This document shows positions 3,284 through 17,445 of a stretch of 37,129 bases of DNA, in pieces; position 1 is the first letter of the stretch, and every line of letters starts with the position of its first letter. The translations under genes were made by a program, and so were the position numbers. The DNA lies in IMG/VR virus record IMGVR_UViG_2872174743_000010, positions 1 to 37,129 of that record, one strand, 5' to 3'. Source of the DNA: a virus (Duplodnaviria; Heunggongvirae; Uroviricota; Caudoviricetes). The notes beneath the pieces were generated by a model. The model was not told the DNA's origin, ran no database searches, and worked only from the letters and a program-made list of their open reading frames with translations.

Positions 3284-3406
3284 AAATGGAGCTATGGATA
3301 TGAACCCCATGCTTGATTATTGTTTTACACCTGCCCTCAGGCTGAGGTAGCCTGAGTTTAACGGACACTCCTTCCTGAAATAGAATGGCATCAGAAGGAG
3401 CTAATA

Positions 3407-3680
3407 ATGAGCAGAAAAAACCAACGTTACTCTAAAGAGTTCAAAGCCGAAGCTGTCAGAACGGTTCTTGAAAATCAACTTTCGATCAGTGAAGGCGCTT
3501 CCCGATTATCCCTTCCTGAAGGCACTTTAGGACAATGGGTTACCGCCGCCAGAAAAGGGCTCGGTACTCCTGGTTCCCGCACGGTGGCTGAACTGGAATC
3601 TGAAATTCTGCAACTGCGTAAGGCGTTAAATGAAGCTCGCCTTGAGCGATATATATTAAAAAAAGCAACAGCGTATTTTG
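3407..3680 (+). pseudogene. IS600 OrfA, truncated at the IS66-family insertion point
   Basis: MSRKNQRYSKEFKAEAVRTVLENQLSISEGASRLSLPEGTLGQWV...ILKKATAYF; contains the A-rich slippery run TTAAAAAAAG; reading continues into the IS66 inverted repeat (GTAAGCG at 3681). Confidence 0.8.
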
Positions 3681-3766
3681 GTAAGCGTAAACTGACCGCC
3701 GTATGTAGCCATTAAGCCTGTATTGGTAACGTAGGTGCCCACCTTTTCAACTAGTGGACACCTGTT

Positions 3767-4186
3767 ATGGAACAGAAAGCATTATCTGCAGAACCCCGCA
3801 GATCATTTTCAAATGAGTTTAAACTTCAAATGGTTAAACTGGCTTCACAACCAGGAGCCTCTGTTGCCCGTATTGTCCGGGAACACGATATCAATGATAA
3901 CCTGCTGTTCAAATGGCTCAGGCTCTGGCAGAACGAAGGGCGCATATCGCGGCGTCTTCCGGTAACAACCTCTTCTGACACTGGCGTTGAATTATTACCT
4001 GTGGAGATAACGCCGGATGAGCCGAAAGAACCGGTGGCTGCTCTTACTCCGTCTTTATCTACTCAGACTACAGTTAGTGCCAGCTCCTGCAAGGTGGAGT
4101 TCCGTCACGGTAACATGACGCTGGAAAATCCTTCACCAGAGCTGCTCACAGTGTTGATCCGTGAACTGACCGGGTGGGGACGATAA
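3767..4186 (+). CDS. tnpA: IS66-family accessory protein TnpA
   Basis: 139 aa with ...FSNEFKLQMVKLASQPGASVARIVREHDINDNLLFKWLR..., the IS66 orf1 pattern; stop overlaps the next gene. Confidence 0.85.
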   Translation: MEQKALSAEPRRSFSNEFKLQMVKLASQPGASVARIVREHDINDNLLFKWLRLWQNEGRISRRLPVTTSSDTGVELLPVEITPDEPKEPVAALTPSLSTQTTVSASSCKVEFRHGNMTLENPSPELLTVLIRELTGWGR

Positions 4187-4533
4187 TCTCACTCCCGTCA
4201 GGCACCCGCATCTGGCTCGTTGCTGGGATAACCGATATGCGTAAGTCTTTCAACGGGCTGGGTGAACAGGTACAGCATGTGCTGAATGATAATCCCTTCT
4301 CCGGTCACCTGTTCATCTTCCGTGGCCGACGGGGTGACATGATTAAAATCCTGTGGGCTGATGCTGATGGTCTGTGCCTGTTCACCAGACGCCTGGAGGA
4401 AGGCCAGTTTATCTGGCCTGCTGTGCGTGACGGCAAGGTATCCATTACCCGCTCGCAACTGGCAATGCTCCTCGATAAGCTGGACTGGCGTCAGCCAAAA
4501 ACATCCCGCCTTAACGCACTGACAATGTTGTAA
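4174..4533 (+). CDS. tnpB: IS66-family TnpB (orf2)
   Basis: GTG start overlapping the tnpA end; ...GTRIWLVAGITDMRKSFNGLGEQV...GHLFIFRGRRGDMIKILWADADGLCLFTRRLEEGQFIWP. Confidence 0.85.
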   Translation: MGTIISLPSGTRIWLVAGITDMRKSFNGLGEQVQHVLNDNPFSGHLFIFRGRRGDMIKILWADADGLCLFTRRLEEGQFIWPAVRDGKVSITRSQLAMLLDKLDWRQPKTSRLNALTML

Positions 4534-4563
4534 AAATGTCATGGCCGGATTATAAAAACGGCC

Positions 4564-6156
4564 ATGAATCAAAAATACCTCATTCGCATTGCAGAACTGG
4601 AATGCCAGCTCCGTCAGAAAGACCAGCAACTGAGTCTGGTTGAAGAGACGGAGGCCTTCCTGCGCTCTGCACTGGCCCGCGCCGAAGAAAAGATCGAAGA
4701 AGATGAACGGGAAATAGAACATCTGCGGGCTCAGATAGAAAAACTGCGCCGGATGCTGTTCGGTACCCGTTCTGAAAAACTGCGTCGTGAAGTTGAACAG
4801 GCTGAGGCCCTGCTGAAACAACGCGAACAGGACAGTGATCGTTACAGTGGGCGGGAAGACGATCCGCAGGTTCCCCGCCAGTTGCGACAGTCTCGTCATC
4901 GTCGCCCGTTACCGGAGCATCTGCCCCGCGAAATAAATCGCCTGGAGCCAGAAGAAAGCTGTTGCCCGGAGTGTGGCGGTGAGCTGGATTATCTGGGGGA
5001 AGTCAGCGCAGAACAACTGGAACTGGTGAGCAGCGCTCTGAAAGTGATCCGCACAGAACGGGTAAAAAAAGCCTGTACAAAATGTGACTGCATCGTTGAA
5101 GCACCGGCACCATCCCGTCCGATAGAGCGTGGTATCGCGGGCCCGGGGTTACTTGCCCGCGTGTTAACGGGAAAATACTGCGAACACCTGCCACTGTATC
5201 GTCAGAGTGAAATTTTTGCCCGTCAGGGTGTCGAACTGAGCCGTGCATTACTCTCCAACTGGGTTGACGCGTGCTGCCAGTTAATGACGCCGCTGAATGA
5301 TGCTCTGTACCGTTATGTGATGAACAGCCGCAAAGTTCACACTGATGACACACCAGTAAAAGTGCTGGCACCGGGCAGGAAGAAGGCGAAAACAGGATAT
5401 ATCTGGACGTATGTCCGGGATGACAGGAATGCCGGTTCGCCAGAGCCTCCGGCGGTCTGGTTCGCCTACTCACCGGACCATCAGGGTAAACATCCGGAGC
5501 AGCACCTTAGTCCCTTCCGGGGTATCCTGCAGGCAGATGCGTTTAATGGTTACGATCGGCTGTTCAGTGCCGAACGAGAAGGCGGCGCGTTGACGGAAGC
5601 AGGATGCTGGGCTCATGCGCGGCGCAAAGTCCACGATGTATATATCAGTACCAAAAGCGCGACAGCGGAAGAAGCCCTGAAACTAATCGGTGAGCTGTAC
5701 GCCATCGAGCACGAAATACGCGGGTTGCCGGTGTCTGAACGCCTGGCGGTCAGGCAAATGCAGAGTAAACCGCTACTGACTTCCCTGTATAAGCTGATGC
5801 AGGAGAAAGAACAGACGTTATCGAAAAAATGCCGTCTGAGAGATGCGTTCCGGTATATCAGGAAGCACTGGGTTGCGTTGTGCAACTTCAGTGATGATGG
5901 TCTGGCTGAGGCGGATAATAATGCCGCGGAAAGAGCGCTTCGTGCAGTCTGTCTCGGAAAGAAAAACTTTATGTTCTTCGGCAGCGATCACGGTGGAGAG
6001 CGTGGTGCGCTACTGTACGGGCTGATCGGCACCTGCCGACTGAACGGTATCGATCCGGAAGCGTATCTGCGCTATATCCTGAGCGTACTGCCGGAATGGC
6101 CTTCCAACCGTGTTGACGAACTCCTGCCATGGAACGTAGCACTCACCAATAAATAA
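4564..6156 (+). CDS. tnpC: IS66-family transposase TnpC
   Basis: 530 aa; coiled-coil N-terminus, CCPECGG zinc motif, DDTPVKVL, WAHARRK, ADNNAAERALR and [15 protein letters not shown] motifs, all characteristic of IS66 transposases. Confidence 0.9.
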   Translation: MNQKYLIRIAELECQLRQKDQQLSLVEETEAFLRSALARAEEKIEEDEREIEHLRAQIEKLRRMLFGTRSEKLRREVEQAEALLKQREQDSDRYSGREDDPQVPRQLRQSRHRRPLPEHLPREINRLEPEESCCPECGGELDYLGEVSAEQLELVSSALKVIRTERVKKACTKCDCIVEAPAPSRPIERGIAGPGLLARVLTGKYCEHLPLYRQSEIFARQGVELSRALLSNWVDACCQLMTPLNDALYRYVMNSRKVHTDDTPVKVLAPGRKKAKTGYIWTYVRDDRNAGSPEPPAVWFAYSPDHQGKHPEQHLSPFRGILQADAFNGYDRLFSAEREGGALTEAGCWAHARRKVHDVYISTKSATAEEALKLIGELYAIEHEIRGLPVSERLAVRQMQSKPLLTSLYKLMQEKEQTLSKKCRLRDAFRYIRKHWVALCNFSDDGLAEADNNAAERALRAVCLGKKNFMFFGSDHGGERGALLYGLIGTCRLNGIDPEAYLRYILSVLPEWPSNRVDELLPWNVALTNK

Positions 6157-6249
6157 GCGTCAATACGGTGCTCCGTTGACGCCTGATATGACTTTCCGTG
6201 TCAAACCGGAATCTCTAATTTTGACGATTTTCTTTTTAGGTTTAATTCC

Positions 6250-6435
6250 CTGAGGGCGACGTAGCAGTAAATCCGACGGTGAATCACGCTGATATTCGCG
6301 GGTTGGATACCGCATTACAGAGGTCCGTCATATGAGCCTGCCACTTTCTTACGTCGCGAATCAGCTTTGTTCCGCCGTCGCCAAGCGCTAACGTGGGTTA
6401 CTCTTGTACCGGGCTACGTCGCCTTCAGGGAACTG
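6250..6435 (-). ncRNA. Candidate structured non-coding RNA (bridge-RNA-like) in the IS110-family non-coding end
   Basis: Non-coding stretch just downstream of the transposase stop with nested complementarity: CCCTGAGGGCGACGTAGC (about 6248-6265) pairs 17 of 18 with GCTACGTCGCCTTCAGGG (about 6413-6430); GCTGATATTCGCG (about 6288-6300) pairs with CGCGAATCAGC (about 6355-6365); repeated TACGTCGC motifs. Strand and ends are inferred, not shown. Confidence 0.3.
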
Positions 6436-6449
6436 GTTATTCTCATTTT

Positions 6450-7577
6450 TTATTTGTGACATTGTGGTTGTTGTGCGACAGACATTGCTATTCGGCCCAT
6501 ATCCCAGATAAAACCCGCCAGCTCACGTGCAACAGCAACAATTGTAATATTGACATTCTTTCCTTTGGCCTGAAGTTTTCGATACCTCTTACAGAGCCTG
6601 AGTTGAGCATCCCATGCTCTGTCAATGACGGGGCGGGGTAAATTTTCCTGCCTTTTTTGTATTGCCGGACTGATGCGTGCCGGATGACGGTAACTCCACG
6701 CTGCCTCGACCAATAGCTTTCTGGCATAGCTGTTTCCGGCTTTGGTAATGCTGCCCTGATGTCTGCTTCCACCCGATGAATATTCTGATGGCGTGATACC
6801 AAACCATGACATCAGTTGTCGTGGATGTTCAAAACGGGTCAGATCACCCAGTTCAGAAATTAATCCAACCGCAGTAATAAACTGAATCCCTCGCATGGCT
6901 TGCAGCGCCTCTACTACCGGATACAGCCTCCATTCGGTAACGGCCTCCTTCAGGGCGGATTCCAGCCGTTCACATTGTGCCTGCCGGTCTTCTATTGTAC
7001 GACGGTGTTCGTCAAAAGCTAATTGTCGCCAGGGACTTTCGAATGAGTATTTGCTGAGCCAGCGTCGGTGTGCAGGGCCCCAATCTGCTCGCCCGACATA
7101 ATGGACCCCATGAACCAGAAGAAACGATTTCAGACGTTGCCTTGCATGCCGTAAATCATCGCGGGCAGATGCCCATGCCCGGGCCAAATCCCGGAATGCC
7201 TCATCTTCAATGCCGGGTACGTAGACAGCAGAAAGATCTCCTGCACGCAGTGAACGCACAAGTCTGATGGCATCACGGCGATCGGTTTTAACCCGCTCCC
7301 CCGGTTTTTTCGGGATAAGTGAGGGGGCGCAGACCATGCAGTCAAAACCGGATTTCACCAGCCGACGATAAAGTCCATAACCACAGGGCCCCGCTTCATA
7401 AACGATACTGACCTGCGATGACTTTGACCTGAGACGTTTACAAAGATTCTGAATATCAGTAGGTGATGTGCCAATTTTACCCATCAGTTCAACAGGTTCT
7501 GAATTGATAGCATAAGCGACAGTAATCGATTCTTTGTGAACATCTAACCCGACGTACAATGTGTTATTGTTGTTCAT
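6450..7577 (-). CDS. IS110-family transposase/recombinase (DEDD type)
   Basis: Start at the Met of MNNNNTLYVGLDVHKESITVAYA (GGAGG-like RBS upstream); N-terminal RuvC-like DEDD region and C-terminal ...GSITKAGNSYARKLLVEAAW... serine-bearing domain typical of IS110/IS1111 transposases. Confidence 0.85.
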   Translation of the reverse strand: MNNNNTLYVGLDVHKESITVAYAINSEPVELMGKIGTSPTDIQNLCKRLRSKSSQVSIVYEAGPCGYGLYRRLVKSGFDCMVCAPSLIPKKPGERVKTDRRDAIRLVRSLRAGDLSAVYVPGIEDEAFRDLARAWASARDDLRHARQRLKSFLLVHGVHYVGRADWGPAHRRWLSKYSFESPWRQLAFDEHRRTIEDRQAQCERLESALKEAVTEWRLYPVVEALQAMRGIQFITAVGLISELGDLTRFEHPRQLMSWFGITPSEYSSGGSRHQGSITKAGNSYARKLLVEAAWSYRHPARISPAIQKRQENLPRPVIDRAWDAQLRLCKRYRKLQAKGKNVNITIVAVARELAGFIWDMGRIAMSVAQQPQCHK

Positions 7578-7779
7578 GCTGGCCTCCGTGGTGGAAATAC
7601 CGGGGGGTAGCAACAGCTCACCCATGCGGCTCTGACAACGATGTTAACCCGCGTTAAATATCCCACGTTGGCCAGCATCTGTCTCACGGAAAGTCATACT
7701 GCCTTACGTATTTTGCACAGGAGTCGCTGATAAATACGCGTTAATCGAACAATGGCGACAACAATTTCCCATTGAAGCG

Positions 7780-8598
7780 ATGTGTCAGGTATTTGGTGTA
7801 TCCAGGAGCGGTTATTACAACTGGGTACAGCATGAACCCTCAGACAGAAAACAAAGTGATGAGCGGCTAAAACTGGAGATTAAGGTGGCACATATCCGCA
7901 CTCGCGAAACATATGGAACCCGGCGGCTCCAGACGGAGCTGGCAGAGAATGGCATCATCGTTGGTCGTGACCGACTGGCACGTCTTCGTAAGGAGCTAAG
8001 GCTACGCTGTAAGCAGAAACGCAAGTTCAGAGCGACTACGAACCCGAACCACAATCTGCCAGTTGCGCCAAATCTGCTGAACCAGACGTTCGCTCCTACA
8101 GCACCAAATCAGGTCTGGGTGGCGGACCTGACGTATGTTGCCACACAGGAGGGATGGTTGTACCTCGCTGGCATCAAAGATGTTTATACGTGCGAAATTG
8201 TCGGCTACGCCATGGGAGAGCGCATGACAAAAGAGCTGACAGGTAAAGCCCTGTTTATGGCGCTCAGGAGCCAGCGCCCACCTGCCGGGTTAATCCACCA
8301 CTCTGATCGAGGTTCACAGTACTGCGCATACGATTACCGGGTCATACAGGAGCAGTCTGGTCTGAAAACATCAATGTCGCGTAAAGGTAACTGTTACGAC
8401 AACGCTCCGATGGAAAGCTTCTGGGGAACGCTGAAAAATGAGAGCCTGAGCCACTATCGTTTTAATAACCGGGATGAAGCCATCTCAGTAATACGGGAAT
8501 ACATTGAGATTTTCTACAATCGTCAGCGTCGTCACTCTCGTCTGGGGAATATCTCCCCGGCAGCCTTCAGGGAAAAATATCATCAGATGGCTGCTTAA
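7780..8598 (+). CDS. IS600 OrfB (DDE catalytic part)
   Basis: MCQVFGVSRSGYYNWV...VWVADLTYV...HHSDRGSQYCA...NCYDNAPMESFWGTLKNE..., the IS3-family integrase core; the orfB frame is open upstream from about 7648, as expected for an OrfAB fusion. Confidence 0.85.
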   Translation: MCQVFGVSRSGYYNWVQHEPSDRKQSDERLKLEIKVAHIRTRETYGTRRLQTELAENGIIVGRDRLARLRKELRLRCKQKRKFRATTNPNHNLPVAPNLLNQTFAPTAPNQVWVADLTYVATQEGWLYLAGIKDVYTCEIVGYAMGERMTKELTGKALFMALRSQRPPAGLIHHSDRGSQYCAYDYRVIQEQSGLKTSMSRKGNCYDNAPMESFWGTLKNESLSHYRFNNRDEAISVIREYIEIFYNRQRRHSRLGNISPAAFREKYHQMAA

Positions 8599-8977
8599 AA
8601 AAAGAACAAATGGTAGTGTCCGCTATTGCCAGTACACCTCAGGCAGACCATCAGTCATACCGGGATTAAAAAATGGCTGTGGAGAATCAGAAAAATTCTC
8701 CAGCAAAAAGGTGACCCGGATTTAATACAATGTGATTACCATCTCTGCAATAAACAGTTTTTACCTGAAAAAGCTTTTACTGGCGAGCTTATTTATATGC
8801 ATGGAAACATGATTGCCAGAAAGAAACGAAAATATTGCGGTGCAGCTTGTGCCGAAAAAGACAAGATGGCACACGAACTTTAATTAACTGAATATTCGAA
8901 ACTGAATTTATGCCAGCAATGGGGTAATGCTGCCAACTTACTGATTTAGTGTATGATGGTGATTTTAAGGTGCTTGC

Positions 8978-9253
8978 GTGGCTTCCATTTCCATCAGATG
9001 TCCTTCCTGCTCCGCTACTGAAGGCGTGGTGCGTAACGGCAAAAGCACTGCCGGACATCAGCGCTATCTCTGCTCTCATTGCCGTAAAACATGGCAACTA
9101 CAGTTCACTTACACCGCCTCTCAGCCCGGTACGCACCAGAAAATCATTGATATGGCCATGAATGGCGTCGGATGTCGCGCCAGTGCACGCATTATGGGCG
9201 TTGACCTCAACACGGTTTTCCGTCACTTAAAAAACTCAGGCCGCAGTCGGTAA
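8978..9253 (+). CDS. insA: IS1 InsA
   Basis: [43 protein letters not shown]... Confidence 0.9.
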
Positions 9254-9279
9254 CCTCGCGCATACAACCGGGCAGTGAT

Positions 9280-9571
9280 GTGATTGTCTGCGCTGAAATG
9301 GACGAACAGTGGGGCTACGTCGGTGCTAAATCACGTCAGCGCTGGCTGTTTTACGCGTATGACAGGATACGGAGGACGGTTGTGGCGCACGTCTTCGGTG
9401 AACGCACTCTGGCCACACTGGAGCGTCTTCTGAGCCTGCTGTCGGCCTTTGAGGTCGTGGTATGGATGACGGATGGCTGGCCGCTGTATGAATCACGCCT
9501 GAAGGGAAAGCTGCACGTTATCAGCAAGCGTTACACTCAGCGCATTGAGCGACATAATCTGAATCTGAGAC
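9280..9571 (+). pseudogene. insB: IS1 InsB, 3'-truncated by the IS66-family insertion
   Basis: InsB frame reads ...[14 protein letters not shown] and then continues into IS66 DNA (RKRTA, stop), whereas the intact copy at 25340-25843 continues [13 protein letters not shown]... Confidence 0.75.
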
Positions 9572-9642
9572 GTAAGCGTACAGCCTGAACCGTCTGGTCA
9601 GAATCTGACGAATTAGACAAAGTGGTGTCCACCAAATAAGTA

Positions 9643-10044
9643 GTGGGAACCAAAGTGTCAGATATGCAGAAAAATGTGAATCCCGGCAGGCGAAAAGGCT
9701 GCCCTAATTATCCTCCCGAATTTAAACAGCAGCTCGTTGCTGCCTCCTGTGAACCCGGGATATCCATCTCAAAACTTGCTCTTGAAAATGGCATTAACGC
9801 CAATCTGTTGTTCAAATGGCGACAACAATGGCGCGAGGGAAAGCTGCTATTACCTTCTTCAGAGAGCCCCCAGCTACTTCCTGTGACTCTCGATGCAGCT
9901 GCCGAACAGCCAGAATCGCTCGCAGAGGATCCGGAAACCCTCAGTATCAGCTGTGAGGTAACGTTCCGGCACGGGACGCTCCGCTTCAATGGCAATGTCA
10001 GCGAAAAGCTCCTGACTCTGCTGATACAGGAACTGAAGCGATGA
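9643..10044 (+). CDS. tnpA: IS66-family TnpA (copy 2)
   Basis: ...PEFKQQLVAASCEPGISISKLALENGINANLLFKWRQQWREG...; start uncertain (GTG at 9643 or ATG at 9664). Confidence 0.8.
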   Translation: MGTKVSDMQKNVNPGRRKGCPNYPPEFKQQLVAASCEPGISISKLALENGINANLLFKWRQQWREGKLLLPSSESPQLLPVTLDAAAEQPESLAEDPETLSISCEVTFRHGTLRFNGNVSEKLLTLLIQELKR

Positions 10045-10388
10045 TCCCGTTACCTTCCGGGACCAAAATTTGGCTGGTTGCCGGTATCACCGATATGAGA
10101 AATGGCTTCAACGGCCTGGCGGCAAAGGTGCAGACGACGCTGAAAGACGATCCGATGTCAGGTCACGTTTTTATCTTCCGTGGGCGTAATGGCAGTCAGG
10201 TAAAGCTCCTCTGGTCTACCGGCGATGGACTGTGTCTGCTGACCAAACGGCTGGAGCGCGGCCGCTTCGCCTGGCCGTCAGCCCGGGATGGCAAAGTGTT
10301 CCTCACACCGGCACAGCTGGCGATGCTCCTTGAAGGTATCGACTGGCGGCAGCCTAAAAGACTGCTTACGTCCCTGACTATGTTGTAA
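10041..10388 (+). CDS. tnpB: IS66-family TnpB (copy 2)
   Basis: MIPLPSGTKIWLVAGITDMRNGFNGLAAKV...; ATG overlaps the tnpA stop (ATGA). Confidence 0.85.
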   Translation: MIPLPSGTKIWLVAGITDMRNGFNGLAAKVQTTLKDDPMSGHVFIFRGRNGSQVKLLWSTGDGLCLLTKRLERGRFAWPSARDGKVFLTPAQLAMLLEGIDWRQPKRLLTSLTML

Positions 10389-10436
10389 GCCTCTTTATCC
10401 TGGTCGACGCTGAATGAGCCTGGTAATATACCCGGT

Positions 10437-11975
10437 ATGAGCAGCTCACTTCCTGACGATATCAATGCACTGAAACGTCTCCTTGCCGAACAGGAGGCGC
10501 TGAACCGTGCCCTGCTGGAAAAGCTGAACGAGCGTGAACGCGAAATAGACCATCTGCAGGCACAGCTGGATAAGCTGCGCCGGATGAACTTCGGCAGCCG
10601 CTCCGAAAAAGTCTCCCGTCGTATCGCACAGATGGAAGCTGACCTGAAGGCACTTCAGAAAGAAAGTGATACCCTTACCGGTCGGGTTGACGACCCGGCC
10701 GTGCAGCGCCCGCTGCGTCAAACCCGCACCCGCAAACCGTTCCCCGAATCACTCCCCCGCGATGAAAAACGGCTGCTGCCGGCAGCGTCATGCTGCCCGG
10801 AATGTGGAGGCTCACTGAGCTATCCGGGTGAGGATGCCGCCGAACAGCTGGAGTTGATGCGCAGCGTCTTCCGGGTTATCCGGACTGTACGTGAAAAGCA
10901 TGCCTGTACTCAGTGCGATGCCATCGTGCAGGCCCCCGCGCCTTCACGGCCCATCGAGCGGGGTATCGCAGGACCGGGGCTGCTGGCCCGCGTGCTGATC
11001 TCAAAGTATGCAGAGCACACCCCGCTGTACCGTCAGTCTGAAATGTACGGCCGCCAGGGCGTGGAGCTGAGTCGTTCACTGCTGTCGGGCTGGGTGGATG
11101 CATGCTGCCGGCTACTGTCACCGCTGGAAGAAGCGCTTCAGGATTATGTGCTGACTGACGGTAAGCTCCATGCTGATGACACGCCTGTCCCGGTGCTGTT
11201 GCCAGGCAATAAGAAAACGAAGACCGGGCGGTTATGGACCTACGTTCGTGACGACCGTAACGCCGGGTCAACGCTGGCGCCGGCGGTGTGGTTCGCTTAC
11301 AGCCCGGACAGAAAAGGCATCCATCCGCAGACCCATCTTGCGGGGTTCAGTGGTGTACTGCAGGCGGATGCATACGCCGGGTTCAACGAGCTGTACCGGG
11401 ATGGCCGGATAACGGAAGCCGCCTGTTGGGCTCACGCCCGCCGTAAAATCCACGATGTGCACGTTCGCACCCCGTCAGCCCTGACGGAGGAAGCGCTGAA
11501 ACGGATCGGCGAACTGTACGCCATCGAGGCAGAGATAAGGGGAATGACGGCGGAGCAGCGCCTTGCCGAACGTCAGTTGAAAACGAAACCGCTGCTGAAA
11601 TCCCTGGAAAGCTGGCTGCGTGAAAAGATGAAAACCCTGTCGCGACACTCAGAACTGGCGAAAGCGTTCGCATACGCCCTGAACCAGTGGCCGGCGCTGA
11701 CGTACTATGCAGATGATGGCTGGGCTGAGGCGGACAATAACATCGCTGAAAATGCGTTGCGGATGGTCAGTCTGGGCCGCAAAAACTACCTGTTCTTCGG
11801 TTCGGATCATGGAGGAGAGCGGGGAGCGCTGCTGTACAGCCTGATCGGGACGTGCAAACTGAACGGAGTGGAGCCAGAAAGCTACCTCCGCTATGTACTT
11901 GACGTCATAGCCGACTGGCCGATAAACCGGGTCGGCGAACTGCTCCCCTGGCGCGTAGCACTGCCGACTGAATAA
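10437..11975 (+). CDS. tnpC: IS66-family transposase TnpC (copy 2)
   Basis: 512 aa with the same motif set as copy 1 ([48 protein letters not shown]), but clearly diverged from it. Confidence 0.9.
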
Positions 11976-12012
11976 CACATCCCCGTCAATACGGTTCTTG
12001 CTGCACGCTTAC

Positions 12013-12910
12013 CATTGACGGGCGTGGTCTGGCTGGCGAGATCAGCAAGGAAACGGGTAAATCCCTGCGTGATAACGCTGAATACGTTAATCCCTGGGCG
12101 TCTCTGCATCGTGTTCAGCAATTCCGCTTCTTTGGTATTCCAGGGCGTCAGGCTTACCGTGAACTGCGGTTGTTGGCTGGTCAGGCGGCAAGGCAGCAGG
12201 GTGACAAAAAAGCAGGTGCGCCGGTACTGGATAACCCGCGCCTTGATGCCATCCTGGCTGCTGCTGATGCTGGCTGTTTTGCCACCTACATTATGAGGCA
12301 GGGCGGCGTGCTGGTTCCTCGCAAATATCACTTGATCAGAACCGCTTATGAAATCAATGAAGAGCCGACCGCCTATGGCGATCACGGTATTCGTATTTAT
12401 GGCATCTGGTCACCCATTGCAGAAGGCAAGATCTGCACTCATGCAGTGAAGTGGAAAATGGTTCGTAAAGCCGTTGACGTTCAGGAGGCGGCAGCCGACC
12501 AGGGCGCTTGCGCCCCTTGGACTCGTGGCAATAACTGTCCCCTTGCTGAAAATTTGAACCAACAGGAGAAAGATAAATCAGCTGATGGGAACCCCAGAAC
12601 GGACATTACCAGCATGGATGACAAGGAGTTGCACGATTACCTGCACAGTATGAGCAAAAAAGAGCGCCGGGAACTGGCAGCAAGGTTACGCCTGGTGAAA
12701 CCGAAACGGCGTAAAGACTACAAACAGCGAATTACAGACCATCAGCGACTGCAGCTCGTGTATGAGCTGAAGTCCAGAGGATTTGATGGCAGCGAGAAAG
12801 AGGTCGATTTACTCCTTCGCGGAGGCAGTATTCCGTCAGGAGCAGGCCTGCGTATCTTCTATCGGAACCAGCGTTTGCAGGAAGATGATCAGTGGCGGAA
12901 CCTGTATTAA
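12013..12910 (+). pseudogene. Phage replication protein fragment (P2 gpA-like C-terminal part), 5'-truncated by IS66 copy 2
   Basis: The reading frame is open from the first base after the IS66 end with no start codon ([17 protein letters not shown]...[13 protein letters not shown]... to stop at 12910); position and orientation fit the end of the P2/186 early operon. Identity to gpA is by context, not by recognised motif. Confidence 0.4.
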
Positions 12911-13063: not shown

Positions 13064-13252
13064 ATGCAGGACTATTTTTTGGAGTCTTTGAAGCTCCAGC
13101 GCATTGATTTTTTTCTTAAGCTTGTAGCGGCTAGTGAGTGTAGTGATGAAGAGAAGGGGCTGGCTCTGCAGTGGGTTTCTGAATTGACTGATGAACTCAT
13201 GGCAAAAATCAGAACCCACGAATACAACCGCTCAATGGATGTCATCAGCTGA
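13064..13252 (+). CDS. Small protein, first gene of the LexA-controlled pair (possible Tum-like antirepressor part)
   Basis: 62 aa from the Met preceded by AGGAGG: MQDYFLESLKLQRIDFFLKLVAASECSDEEKGLALQWVSELTDELMAKIRTHEYNRSMDVIS; no motif recognised. Confidence 0.45.
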   Translation: MQDYFLESLKLQRIDFFLKLVAASECSDEEKGLALQWVSELTDELMAKIRTHEYNRSMDVIS

Positions 13253-13262
13253 GGTGACTTTT

Positions 13263-13496
13263 ATGCGCATTGAAATAATGATCGATAAAGAGCAGAAGAT
13301 TAGCCAGTCTACCCTGGACGCTCTTGAATCCGAGCTTTACCGCAATCTGCGCCCTCTGTATCCCAAAACGGTAATTCGTATCCGCAAAGGTAGCTCTAAC
13401 GGTGTGGAACTTACCGGATTGCAACTGGACGAAGAAAGAAAACAAGTGATGAAAATTATGCAGAAGGTGTGGGAAGACGACAGCTGGCTGCATTAA
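13263..13496 (+). CDS. DinI-like protein
   Basis: MRIEIMIDKEQKISQSTLDALESELYRNLRPLYPKTVIRIRKGSSNGVELTGLQLDEERKQVMKIMQKVWEDDSWLH, with the DinI pattern (MRIE..., ...WEDD.W); GAGGTGA upstream. Confidence 0.75.
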   Translation: MRIEIMIDKEQKISQSTLDALESELYRNLRPLYPKTVIRIRKGSSNGVELTGLQLDEERKQVMKIMQKVWEDDSWLH

Positions 13497-13631
13497 GAAA
13501 CGTTGCTGGCGTCTGAACTAGCTTCTGGCGTCAGCAAGGTTGAACAACGAGCCCTTGCGAGGCGTTAGCTCTGTAGTGCATGTCTATGCCGCATGAGATC
13601 GCATGATCGTTTGAGGATCGTTTTTGCTAAG

Positions 13632-13656
13632 GCCCGCCAGAACTGGCGGGCTTTTG
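13632..13656 (+). terminator. Intrinsic terminator candidate after the DinI-like gene
   Basis: GCCCGCCAG-AA-CTGGCGGGC followed by TTTTGCG. Confidence 0.5.
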
Positions 13657-13700
13657 CGTAGATCATGCAGGTGCATGAAAACCACTACATAAAGCGGGCA

Positions 13701-13719
13701 GGCGTGGCGGGGATACGAT
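13701..13719. other. cos-like site (19 nt)
   Basis: GGCGTGGCGGGGATACGAT; the first 13 nt and last 2 match the cohesive-end sequence of 186 as remembered (GGCGTGGCGGGGAAAGCAT), about 16 of 19; lies between the early and late blocks. Confidence 0.35.
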
Positions 13720-13788
13720 TGCGCGCTAGGTATAAGTGTGTAAAATAATTCCAAAATAAATCATCACTAATGAAGTGAGAGGGTAATA

Positions 13789-15438
13789 ATGTTAGTCAAG
13801 AAAAATAAAAATTATAGTTTATATTTTTTAATTACAAATAATCAACAGATATCTGATTCTGGTAATTATATAAAAATAGTCCCATCAAGAAGCGATTGGA
13901 ATGATTTTGGATATTTGAGTAGAGTCGAAATATCTATTTTTAATAAAAAAGAGTGTAAGGATATAATTTCACTGAATGGTTATATTGGTTTTTTGAATTC
14001 AGAGGAGGAACGAAATGGAAAAGCAGAACTGATAAGGCGAGTGAAAAAAAAGGAAGAATCTAATTTAAAGGATGAGGGGTTTAATGATTATTTTGTCATG
14101 CTTCAGGATATGAATAATTATCGAAGACTAGTAAGATTTTTTGGGGTGAATGAATCCAAATATATATTAAATTTCATTAATGATGTTGTTTCTAAGAAAA
14201 GTGACGCTAGTGCAGAGAATTTGAGGAAAAAAGCAATCTCTTCTGATATCTTTAATAAATCTTTCATTAGAGAGTCTGAGTCGTATTTTACTTTCAAAAA
14301 TGCAGGAACAGTTCTTTCCGGTATTCAATATGAGGAGTTGGGTAATTTATCACAGCACATCAAGATTAGCTATTCGAATAAAGTTAATGAAGAAGATGTA
14401 TCTTATGTTTTTAATTTTGATCACGAGCATGATTTACCAAAAAGAATTTCCATAATTATAGGCGAGAATGGTGTAGGAAAAAGCCAAACGCTTAGAGAAA
14501 TCGCATTGGCTGCGATTAAAGGAAAGGATAATTTGGTGGCTGTAGTTGATTCTAACGGTGTGAGCATTGAAGAACGAATTCAAATTAGTAGGCTCATTGC
14601 TTTTTCTCCAACAAATGAAAGTAAGTGTTCATTTCCAACCGATAAAAGAATAAAATCATTGATATGGTACAAAAGATTGACTTTAAATCGTGAATCAAAA
14701 TCCAAATTAAACTTGAATGATTTAATAGTGCAACTAGCGAGGAGTAACGACGCTATCGGCTATAATCAAAGGTGGAATATATTTGTTGATGCACTGAGTG
14801 TTCTAAATAGTAACAACGATTTAGTAATCAAATGTGGCGGTGAAAATTCACCATTTGTTAAATTAAATGAGCTTAATTCTCGAGGCGAAGAATCTAGACT
14901 ATCATTATATTCTGAAATTATTCTCTCTGGCGAGCCTTTGAGGCTTATTGAAAATAAATGTTACCCTTTGAGTAGTGGGGAAATATCGTTTATTAAGTTT
15001 TGTGTACAAGTTTGTTTGTATATTGAGAATGGGACTCTTCTATTAATAGATGAGCCAGAAACACATCTCCATCCTTCATTTATTAATAAATTTATGGCAT
15101 TGCTTGATAATTTATTAGAAAAGACAGGCTCTTCAGCTATCATAGCAACGCATTCGGTTTATCTTGTTCGGGAGGTTTTTAAGGAGCAAGTGACAATACT
15201 CAGAAGACGAGATGATGGGGTAATTGTTAGCGAAAAACCGAGATTGAGTACTTTTGGGGCGAATATAGGAAATATCTCATATTTTGTTTTCGGTGAGAGT
15301 GAACCAACTCAAATTTTAAATAAAGTAAAAAACAATATAATTGCAAAGAATATGTCTTGGGATGATGTTGAATCTAAATATAGCGAGGACTTATCACTTA
15401 ATGTATTAACTGCGTTGAGAAATGAAATGGGCAATTGA
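13789..15438 (+). CDS. ABC-type ATPase (AAA_21/AAA_15-like), Septu PtuA-like, with a ~215 aa N-terminal extension
   Basis: 549 aa; Walker A GENGVGKS (aa 225-232, nt 14461-14484), signature-like YPLSSGE (about aa 393-399), Walker B LLLIDEPE (aa 417-424), H-loop-like IIATHS (about aa 451-456); very AT-rich; GAGAGGG RBS. Confidence 0.7.
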   Translation: MLVKKNKNYSLYFLITNNQQISDSGNYIKIVPSRSDWNDFGYLSRVEISIFNKKECKDIISLNGYIGFLNSEEERNGKAELIRRVKKKEESNLKDEGFNDYFVMLQDMNNYRRLVRFFGVNESKYILNFINDVVSKKSDASAENLRKKAISSDIFNKSFIRESESYFTFKNAGTVLSGIQYEELGNLSQHIKISYSNKVNEEDVSYVFNFDHEHDLPKRISIIIGENGVGKSQTLREIALAAIKGKDNLVAVVDSNGVSIEERIQISRLIAFSPTNESKCSFPTDKRIKSLIWYKRLTLNRESKSKLNLNDLIVQLARSNDAIGYNQRWNIFVDALSVLNSNNDLVIKCGGENSPFVKLNELNSRGEESRLSLYSEIILSGEPLRLIENKCYPLSSGEISFIKFCVQVCLYIENGTLLLIDEPETHLHPSFINKFMALLDNLLEKTGSSAIIATHSVYLVREVFKEQVTILRRRDDGVIVSEKPRLSTFGANIGNISYFVFGESEPTQILNKVKNNIIAKNMSWDDVESKYSEDLSLNVLTALRNEMGN

Positions 15439-16303
15439 AATGAATAAATTAAAAAGACCTGTTTTTAAAGATTATTCTGCATTTAAAAAACTATCTGCAA
15501 ATAAGAGATTAAAACATCATTCTGTTCTGAATGGACAGGATACATTTATACTTAATGCATATAGATCGTACATAAAGAATAAAGGGTATCTTAATGTCAA
15601 TTCTTGTGGCGTATTGAGTAACAATATTGCTGAAGCTTTGAGATATTATTATAACAATCCCGCAAAGTGTTTATCTATAATTGATGATATAAGAGCAGCT
15701 AATTCTAACTCTCTATGTCCAATGTGTGGTTCAATGCATAGCGGGACTTTGGATCATGTTTTACCCAAGGAAAACTATCCAGAATTTTCTTTATTCACTA
15801 AGAATTTGGTTCCTGCTTGCAAATGTAATACTTTCAAAAGTACTACTATAGCTAATTCTGCAGGCCATCGGATGCTGCATCCATATTTTGATAATATATT
15901 AAAACAAAGATTAATATGTGCTAATTTTTCTAAATTAGGGCGAACACCTACAATTGATGTAAAAATCATAATTGACCCAATGTCACCAGAATATAACAAT
16001 GTTAAGTATCATCTTGATAATGTTGTTATCAAGAATAATATTAAGGGGTATTTGTCTGAACAATGGGAGTCGTTTTACTTATATCCTGAGCTTGTTATTA
16101 GAGGACTGAATAAGAGTCTTTCTACTTATAGCGATGTATATGAGTTGTTGACTCGCGAGTTGTTGCTGTTGGATGAAAAACATAAAGGTAAAAATAATTG
16201 GAATTCGGTTTTTGTAGCTGGGTTAATTCGACCTGATGTGATTAGGTGGATACTCTGTGAATTACATTTAGGTAACAGAAGTCCAGACGGTCGTCTCATA
16301 TGA
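15422..16303 (+). CDS. HNH endonuclease, Septu PtuB-like
   Basis: 293 aa; HNH core CPMCGSMHSGTLDHVLPKENYPEFSLFTKNLVPACKCN (aa 99-136); start overlaps the upstream stop by 17 nt (a second in-frame ATG sits 1 nt after the stop). Confidence 0.7.
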   Translation: MKWAIEMNKLKRPVFKDYSAFKKLSANKRLKHHSVLNGQDTFILNAYRSYIKNKGYLNVNSCGVLSNNIAEALRYYYNNPAKCLSIIDDIRAANSNSLCPMCGSMHSGTLDHVLPKENYPEFSLFTKNLVPACKCNTFKSTTIANSAGHRMLHPYFDNILKQRLICANFSKLGRTPTIDVKIIIDPMSPEYNNVKYHLDNVVIKNNIKGYLSEQWESFYLYPELVIRGLNKSLSTYSDVYELLTRELLLLDEKHKGKNNWNSVFVAGLIRPDVIRWILCELHLGNRSPDGRLI

Positions 16304-16410
16304 TTTTTTGCATCTTCAGCGTGTATCTGCACGCTGAAGAAATTCATAAAAACTGCTGCCTATTAATAAATTTTTTTAGCTGAGTTAAAGAACCTCATTT
16401 AGTGATTACG

Positions 16411-17445
16411 TTAAGTAGCTAGTTTATAACTATCAAATTTAACAATGTTATCACTTACCAATTTATTTATTTCCATCATTCTTTTTTGTAACGGTATTAA
16501 CTCGTTACGTACAAACACCAGGCTCGCCTTCTCCACATCCCCAAACCCCCCGACATTATTAGGCATAATCCCCATCATTTGCGGTGGCACACGATGCGCC
16601 GCCATCATGTCATCCCGGCTCACGTTCTTGATGTTCAGAAACTCATCCTTCGCCGCGACTTCTGACAACGGGATGATCTGAAGCCCGTCCTTTTTGCCGT
16701 TAGGCGAGTACATAAACAGATTGCGGAAGTTACCTGGTCCTTTGGCGCTTTTCATCGCATTGCGGAGGTTGTTCACATCCTCCTGGTTTTGCGCGGCATC
16801 GGTCATGTACATGATGAAGCCTGCATGACTGCCGTTAATGTAATACTATCGGCGGAACAGCGTGGCGGACTCGTTGAGCAGGGCTGACGGAATGGCAGAA
16901 AGGTAACCTGGCAGGCCGTAGATCTCTTGGTTGATGTCCGGTTCCATCAGATGAAAGATGCTTCCTTTCGTGAACTGATACGGCTGCGTGGTCATGCCGT
17001 ATTGCACAAACCAGTAGGTATCCAGGTCTAATCCGCGTCGGGTGTATTTTGCCAGAGCAGGCTCAAGAGCGATGACCTCTCCGAACCGGTTTGTGCGTTT
17101 CTCCAGGTAAGCGTTACCAAATACCAGATAATCCTGCACAAAACGTGAAAAAGCCTGCTGGCTGAGCAGCGGGTGAGGGATGTAGGTACTGATCAGAATG
17201 TTGCATTTCACCGCAATTGGTGAACTGTGATGCACGGCGGCGCGGAAGGTGCGCGCCAGTCCGTCAAAACTCACTGGCGGCTCATACCAGCGATCTGTCT
17301 GTACGCATTCCACATAGTCCAGTAGTTCACGGCGGTCCAGAACCGGAACGGGATCGCCGAAGCTGAATGCTTCGGCTGAAGTCTGGTTTTTATGCTGGGT
17401 CTGTTTCGTCGCCGCAGCGCGGTTCTTCTTACTCTTTCCCATCAA
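16411..17445 (-). pseudogene. Q: Portal protein (P2 gpQ-like) interrupted by an in-frame TAG
   Basis: Track ORFs 16846..17445 and 16411..16812 are in the same frame; protein reads ...ATLFRR-stop-YYINGSHAGFIMYMTDAAQ...; the TAG is at 16846-16848 on the minus strand. Confidence 0.8.

Follow-up and report, generated by a model that had tools for sequence, protein, structure and literature searches.

A Septu-like ATPase–HNH gene pair of the phage lambda ea59-ea31 family in a P2-like prophage, with a conserved N-terminal domain on its ATPase

The closest described systems to the gene pair reported here are Septu PtuA/PtuB of Escherichia coli (PDB 8EE4, 8EE7 and 8EEA) and the PtuAB of type I-A retrons (Ec78/Eco7 and Ec83), in which, as here, an ABC-type ATPase and a zinc-finger HNH nuclease are encoded by two genes. 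An N-terminal extension is absent from stand-alone Septu PtuA, whereas that of retron PtuA is 63 residues long and serves to dock the reverse transcriptase and RNA (PMC12819146, PMC12673091). PtuB combines an HNH domain with a C-terminal domain of three helices, and the latter is clamped by the C-terminal extensions of two PtuA subunits into a nine-helix bundle (PMC12819146, PMC12673091). A coiled-coil insertion links PtuA dimers by mediating PtuA-PtuA contacts (PMC12673091). The stretch analyzed in this work (hereafter the window) is 37,129 nucleotides of Caudoviricetes DNA, positions 1 to 37,129 of the IMG/VR record IMGVR_UViG_2872174743_000010, and carries on its plus strand a PtuA-like ABC-type ATPase gene at 13789..15438 (549-aa open reading frame (ORF)) followed by a PtuB-like HNH nuclease gene at 15440..16303 (287 aa). 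This cassette is likely to be an autonomous, translationally coupled Septu-type ATPase-nuclease module of the lineage of PDC-M01 and lambda ea59-ea31, carried as cargo in a prophage hotspot and acting by a PtuAB-like mechanism in which the N-terminal domain of the ATPase would serve regulation and/or assembly.

Family membership was assigned by profile and translated searches. The ATPase aligned with PADLOC PDC-M01A model PDLC04242 (E 3.2e-55; residues 27-539 of the ATPase, positions 31-551 of the 566-position profile) and end to end with two more PDC-M01A models, the Septu PtuA models of PADLOC ranking after these. The HNH protein aligned with PDC-M01B model PDLC04270 (E 1.2e-33; residues 8-270 of the protein, positions 3-263 of the 280-position profile). 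In PADLOC, PDC-M01 has the status of an unpublished candidate, with calls that overlap those of Septu (PMC11811056). The ATPase was also placed in PHROG 8066 (E 9e-211); PHROGs 8066 and 18937 are the families of the two proteins and carry no functional annotation. A translated search of phage genomes provided the link to lambda Ea59, with which the window ATPase is collinear across residues 21-549 (E 2e-19), and the HNH protein matched lambda Ea31 across the HNH core (E 2e-15). Of the lambda proteins in turn, Ea59 hit a PDC-M01A model (4e-201) and one PADLOC PtuA model (5e-184), and Ea31 a PDC-M01B model (6e-113); in both the lambda and the window pair the matches to PDC-M01 models extend over the full or nearly full length of each protein. 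On the PADLOC and Ea59/Ea31 matches, the window cassette is placed in the family containing lambda ea59-ea31, of which it is, by sequence, a divergent member.

The window and lambda pairs share gene order and genes that abut or overlap: the window ATPase stop codon lies at 15436-15438 and the HNH ATG begins 1 nt past it, at 15440, and the neighboring lambda genes ea59 and ea31 overlap by 4 nt. They also share the order of their domains, which in Ea59 is an N-terminal WND[FY] domain, a compact ABC ATPase and a C-terminal helical element, and in Ea31 a helical N-terminal region of ~90 aa, a zinc HNH core and a C-terminal region of ~130 aa. The differences are in length (Ea59 525 aa, Ea31 296 aa; the N-terminal domain is ~30 residues longer in the window ATPase than in Ea59), in identity to the window proteins (~24% for the ATPase, 37% for the HNH core), in the best PDC-M01 sub-models (PDLC04242 and PDLC04270 for the window, PDLC04235 and PDLC04256 for lambda) and in location, which is a P2 hotspot for the window cassette and the b region for ea59/ea31. 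The pair is adjacent and co-oriented in the window, in lambda and at six other loci, with an HNH partner of 287-297 aa where fully called (two calls are shorter, at 244 and 275 aa), and this partner follows the ATPase in an integrative and conjugative element (ICE), a genomic island, a defense island and a type I restriction-modification (R-M) operon. In the locus set compiled here, the lambda pair (L010 2986-5450, phage lambda 24509-26973) is itself a PDC-M01 / Septu-like ATPase-HNH pair. One PADLOC "PtuA" model, PDLC00282, is in essence a model of Ea59.

The ATPase ORF is preceded by a ribosome-binding site read from the sequence (GAGAGGG, 13777..13783, plus strand) 5 nt ahead of the ATG, and the same 549-aa coding sequence was called by the Prokaryotic Genome Annotation Pipeline (PGAP) in a 99.7% identical E. 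coli locus. Because of this ribosome-binding site, the matching PGAP call and homologues that align from about residue 10, the start codon is credible, and the far-downstream start for which the original prediction, made from the letters of the window, had allowed was rejected. Reading of motifs placed Walker A (GENGVGKS) at residues 225-232 (nt 14461-14484), the signature (LSSGE) at 394-398 (nt 14968-14982), Walker B (LLLIDE) at 417-422 (nt 15037-15054), all on the plus strand, and the H-loop (THS) at 454-456; Walker A therefore begins at residue 225, as had been predicted. Pfam AAA_21/AAA_15 cover residues 221-460, with no Pfam match ahead of 221. The ABC-type core was delimited from these motifs to residues ~189-480 (14353..15228, plus strand) and contains no long coiled-coil insertion in the AlphaFold2 (AF2) model (mean predicted local distance difference test score (pLDDT) 79, predicted template modeling score (pTM) 0.75).

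Comparison with solved structures identified the PtuAB of Septu and of retrons as the best structural matches for both window proteins. The best Foldseek PDB matches of the ATPase model were PtuA structures. The sequence match to PtuA is weak but collinear from Walker B to the C-terminus, and in the sequence alignment to PtuA 8ee4 residues 415-548 pair with residues 314-441. As in PtuAB, the models of the window proteins show a C-terminal three-helix element on the ATPase and a helical C-terminal domain on the nuclease. In the window ATPase the three-helix element comprises residues 508-548 (15310..15432, plus strand; AF2 helices 508-519, 524-531 and 537-548) and is, by analogy with PtuA, where the HNH protein is likely to dock. 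Unlike PtuA, the window ATPase has Walker A at residue 225, behind a 188-residue domain, and in its predicted model does not have the coiled-coil insertion. The expectation that PtuA places its ATPase head near the N-terminus was borne out, as solved PtuA is without a comparable domain (PMC12819146, PMC12673091). The window HNH protein, at 287 aa, is 50-70 residues longer than PtuB (210-234 aa), as it has additional helices at the N-terminus and its C-terminal domain is larger. Membership in the type I-A retrons was considered and rejected, as no reverse transcriptase adjoins the cassette, whose neighbors are a DinI-like gene and the portal gene gpQ; a search of 13200-16500 against Rfam gave no match at E<=1. 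At the far end of the gene, the 90%-identity cluster representative for the ATPase (P0001) is 537 aa long with a deviating C-terminal end (...SEDIIT), which suggests the circulation of frameshifted or truncated copies among the 230 sequences that make up the cluster.

The N-terminal domain of the ATPase occupies residues 1-188 (13789..14352, plus strand) and is predicted as a mixed alpha/beta fold in which six strands are followed by six helices, all within residues 1-177, with AF2 pLDDT mostly 80-90. A beta-hairpin at residues 190-209 leads into Walker A, and in the model the region ~190-224 was read as the usual beginning of an ABC-type ATPase domain. As the hairpin region thus belongs to the ATPase domain, the true extra domain spans ~1-188 and not 1-215: a large conserved domain is present where an extension of ~215 aa had been proposed, at a size of ~188 aa. 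Its reported richness in lysine and asparagine was reproduced (9.8% K and 11.2% N, where the remainder of the ATPase has 6.6% and 8.7%) and is in part due to the 29% guanine-cytosine (GC) content of that stretch.

Conservation of the domain was examined at two depths. Full-length homologues with 42-53% identity (31 members) align from about residue 10 of the ATPase onward, and the residues P32, N38, D39, F40, G67, Y111, R112, D132, S158, F159, R161, N171, G178 and E182 are invariant among them. Homologues of 540-570 aa come from Enterobacterales, Xanthomonadales, Burkholderiales and Hyphomicrobiales. Across a wider set of 97 members, whose identity to the window domain is 21-35%, W37, N38, D39, F40, Y111, R112, G119, L127, D132, F155, F159, R161, F167, A172, L176, G178 and E182 are conserved, the run W37 to F40 at 81-92%. 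The alignments indicate that this part is a true domain, with conservation reaching from Gammaproteobacteria to Alphaproteobacteria. A search with a domain profile against 1.84 billion representative proteins then found 262 cluster representatives; the best 150 of these were nearly all proteins of 530-580 aa with the domain N-terminal, or shorter chains that look like fragments, and none of the best 150 carried the domain on another architecture, so that it appears confined to this ATPase family. In 95 cluster representatives of 500-600 aa, Walker A lies at residues 150-260.

Searches with the domain alone against Pfam, NCBIfam and the PDB, by sequence and by profile, gave nothing credible (the best were THO7 and S100-type noise at E >=0.1), in agreement with the earlier remark that this part holds no recognizable motif. 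No solved structure of any family member was detectable by sequence search, and a Foldseek search with the full-length ATPase model against PDB and viral structures returned ABC ATPases only, the N-terminal domain being swamped. Residues 1-188 alone match only PDC-M01A models in PADLOC, plus PHROG 8066. One of these PDC-M01A models is of the Ea59 type (profile positions 7-138, E 8e-7), and hhalign of the window domain against Ea59 gave E 8e-4 with the D-x-W-N-D-[FY] and I-G-F motifs aligned; WND[FY], IGF, D132, R161 and G178 are common to both. An assignment of the domain as a PD-(D/E)xK nuclease was rejected, as no conserved acidic-x-Lys motif was read from the alignment in the strand after D39. 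The original prediction had supposed that the long N-terminus distinguishes this cassette from described Septu variants. It is instead a hallmark of the whole family, seen in PDC-M01A, in the PADLOC PtuA model on Ea59-like proteins and in PHROG 8066, and the unusual architecture is thus a family trait already captured by database models and not a local novelty. In some relatives a further domain is fused ahead of the N-terminal domain, DUF4062 in two (P0306 and P0323) and AbiJ_NTD3 in another (P0302); P0323 is encoded within a type I R-M operon, with hsdM on one side and hsdS/hsdR on the other, and the HNH partner is still found downstream of P0323 and P0302. The loci of relatives with such an extra front domain are L007 3770-6788, L008 3168-6186 and L009 4001-7311, and all three retain the HNH partner.

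The start of the HNH protein was set at 15440 (287 aa), not at 15422 (293 aa), because the MNK... start is conserved family-wide. Its zinc-finger HNH catalytic core comprises residues 88-150 (15701..15889, plus strand), delimited by invariant columns in 33 homologues and by motif positions (C93-x2-C96, D105-H106, N122, C127-x-C129 and H147). Ahead of the core is a helical region of ~87 aa that was absent from the earlier description. Behind the core, a region of ~140 residues had been reported in a protein of 293 aa; ~137 residues (151-287) are present (15890..16300, plus strand), in a protein of 287 aa. This C-terminal region is predicted as a beta-hairpin and a helical bundle (residues 185-277, pLDDT >90) with an invariant NNWNS..F..G motif, and on its own matches only PDC-M01B models in PADLOC. 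Because the top fold matches of the whole HNH protein are solved PtuB chains (177-185 residues aligned), the region is most likely an enlarged PtuB-type helical docking domain rather than the new sensor or regulatory domain that had been suggested.

A mechanism was drawn by analogy with the solved PtuAB complexes. The ATPase subunits would dimerize through their ABC heads, and their C-terminal three-helix elements would hold between them the helical C-terminal domain of a single HNH subunit, that region acting as a docking domain. The nucleotide state together with a phage cue would control cutting of nucleic acid (DNA or tRNA) by the HNH protein, and this cutting would stop phage growth. The N-terminal domain, packed on the ATPase, would assume a part in regulation and/or higher-order assembly, comparable to the short extension by which retron PtuA docks its regulator; we infer that in this role it replaces the coiled-coil insertion of PtuA. 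Because of homology and genomic context the module is read as Septu-type, and its role is probably anti-phage.

Several results weigh against this assignment. The window ATPase does not reach the cut-off of the NCBIfam PtuA model NF041760 (41.1 bits against 500), nor does the HNH protein reach that of TIGR02646 (13.1 bits against 52.15). The isoelectric point of the N-terminal domain ranges from 4.5 to 9.3 across the family (median 5.5), so that its net charge varies. No experimental anti-phage test of PDC-M01 or of lambda Ea59/Ea31 was found in the literature, and the papers that mention ea59/ea31 treat both genes solely as non-essential. A search of the open literature on PDC-M01, on Septu subtypes and on ea59/ea31 in defense likewise found no characterization.

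Other ATPase families were compared in turn. The TIGR04435 family ("restriction system-associated AAA family ATPase") resembles the window ATPase in length (568 positions) and in placement of the Walker B region, and some relatives of the window ATPase sit in type I R-M operons; the window ATPase, though, scores 73.6 bits against a cut-off of 300, aligns over residues 392-506 only and has no R-M genes near its cassette. OLD, Gabija GajA and PARIS AriA also use an AAA_15/AAA_21-type ATPase head in defense, and P2 old occupies the same hotspot as the window cassette, but these have a Toprim or DUF4435 partner or fusion where the window has a separate HNH protein, and the matches are confined to the ATPase core. 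Membership in OLD, PARIS or Gabija was rejected on the grounds that the partner is HNH and not Toprim.

Two accounts of what the N-terminal domain does were considered. It may, as a tentative proposal, be an undescribed ligand- or protein-sensing domain that sets the trigger specificity of a coiled-coil-free, Septu-like lineage. Alternatively, it could be purely a scaffold for assembly or oligomerization, without sensing, that replaces the coiled coil linking PtuA dimers into tetramers or hexamers, an account which is possible but which we regard as doubtful. The PtuA-PtuA contacts made by the coiled coil (PMC12673091) and the features of the predicted model argue for a scaffold: the longest helix between Walker A and the signature is <=10 residues, the spacing between the two motifs is 169 residues, identical to that of lambda Ea59, and the whole-chain pTM of 0.75 suggests a domain packed on the ATPase and not tethered to it. 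The conserved residues divide between the two accounts, since the aromatic and hydrophobic W37, F40, F155, F159, F167 and L176 would suit an assembly surface, whereas the polar N38, D39, Y111, R112, D132, R161 and E182 resemble a putative binding site more than a generic interface. The domain has also diverged more rapidly than the ATPase core, identity being 35% in the one and 49% in the other, which counts against the scaffold.

The genomic setting of the cassette was determined by comparison with related prophages. The window sequence from 12013 on matches an intact P2-like prophage of E. coli UPEC-245U at 99.6% identity, and the cassette sits between the DinI-like gene and the portal gene gpQ. 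The interval from gpA to gpQ is a defense hotspot in which P2 carries old and tin and in which many defense systems have been found (PMC9122126). The cassette was present in 3 of 5426 complete E. coli genomes, the flanking backbone in 1219, and its GC content is 29-34% against 46-50% in the flanks; it thus has the features of horizontally acquired, low-GC cargo in a P2-like prophage hotspot. Elsewhere the pair was found next to a RES toxin at an ICE edge, next to HipA genes in an integrase-flanked island, and together with GmrSD and Eco57I-type genes in a defense island. In the window, gpA is interrupted at 12013 by an IS66-family insertion sequence (IS) element, leaving a C-terminal gpA fragment at ~12170-12910, and the portal gene gpQ (16411-17445) has a nonsense codon at 16846-16848 (minus strand) where UPEC-245U has lysine (...ATLFRR* against ...ATLFRRK...), which splits it into fragments of 199 and 133 aa. 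Because gpA is cut by the IS element and the portal gene carries a nonsense codon, the prophage is dead, and both cassette ORFs are intact despite this. After the DinI-like gene, a terminator-like hairpin was read from the sequence (GCCCGCCAG..CTGGCGGGC followed by TTTT, 13632..13655, plus strand), which would insulate the cassette from upstream phage transcription; a consensus terminator scan missed it, the T-run being just 4 T.

This setting bears on whether the module might instead be a phage-serving nuclease of lytic growth, for example degrading host or competitor DNA or excluding co-infecting phages, and not a host defense; such a role might be anticipated for the ea genes of the lambda b region. 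The homologous lambda pair lies between int and ea47 in the non-essential b region, and early in the lytic cycle the lambda "ea" proteins are expressed from pL. A b-region endonuclease of lambda, "Ben", which might map to ea31/ea59, was reportedly purified in 1982 (Benchimol et al., J Biol Chem 257:5211). Such a role is nevertheless rather unlikely for the window cassette, given that the pair recurs in the non-phage settings listed above, which together with the type I R-M operon are typical of defense islands (the HipA genes there representing a toxin-antitoxin), that both ORFs have stayed intact in a dead prophage, and that the hairpin separates the cassette from the upstream phage genes. 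Finally, a long N-terminus arising as an annotation artifact, through a wrong start codon or fused genes, has the unusual Walker A position in its favor and nothing else, and is refuted as extremely improbable by the continuous ORF with its ribosome-binding site at the first ATG, the recurrence of Walker A at 150-260 in the 95 cluster representatives, the confident AF2 model and above all the conservation of N-terminal residues, invariant across proteobacterial classes.

With a Septu-type module as the preferred reading, pairs of this type that bear the generic annotation "AAA family ATPase / HNH endonuclease" can be named as Septu-like PDC-M01 modules. Lambda, the best-studied temperate phage, carries ea59/ea31, and no function for either gene was found in the open literature; if the sensing-domain proposal is true, an ATPase-controlled HNH nuclease in phage-phage conflict would be their first function. 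Because the family has a lambda member, a conserved N-terminal domain without a sequence-detectable solved relative and an apparent lack of the coiled coil, it offers a tractable case for how Septu-type nucleases are switched on, with lambda genetics and a few conserved residues as handles. The main value of the present analysis lies in the lambda ea59/ea31 link and in an N-terminal domain that is defined and testable.

Further features of the region were recorded. The intergenic region ahead of the cassette spans 13497-13788 (292 bp), and a consensus scan for sigma-70-type promoters between the hairpin and the ATPase ATG returned none. A 10-bp inverted repeat without a T-run (CTTCAGCGTG/CACGCTGAAG, 16314..16339, no strand assigned) lies where the HNH and portal genes converge. 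In other P2-like phages the same slot between the DinI-like and portal genes holds either a hypothetical protein and a HIRAN-domain protein or a Hypoth_Ymh-domain protein (alternative cargo loci L011 5373-7024 and L012 5307-6458). The prophage is truncated, its similarity to the intact P2-like prophage starting within gpA at 12013, and to the left of this point, from 3300 to 12013, the window holds a pile of IS elements, comprising IS66-family tnpA/tnpB/tnpC at 9643-11975, another at 4564-6156, and an IS110-like element.

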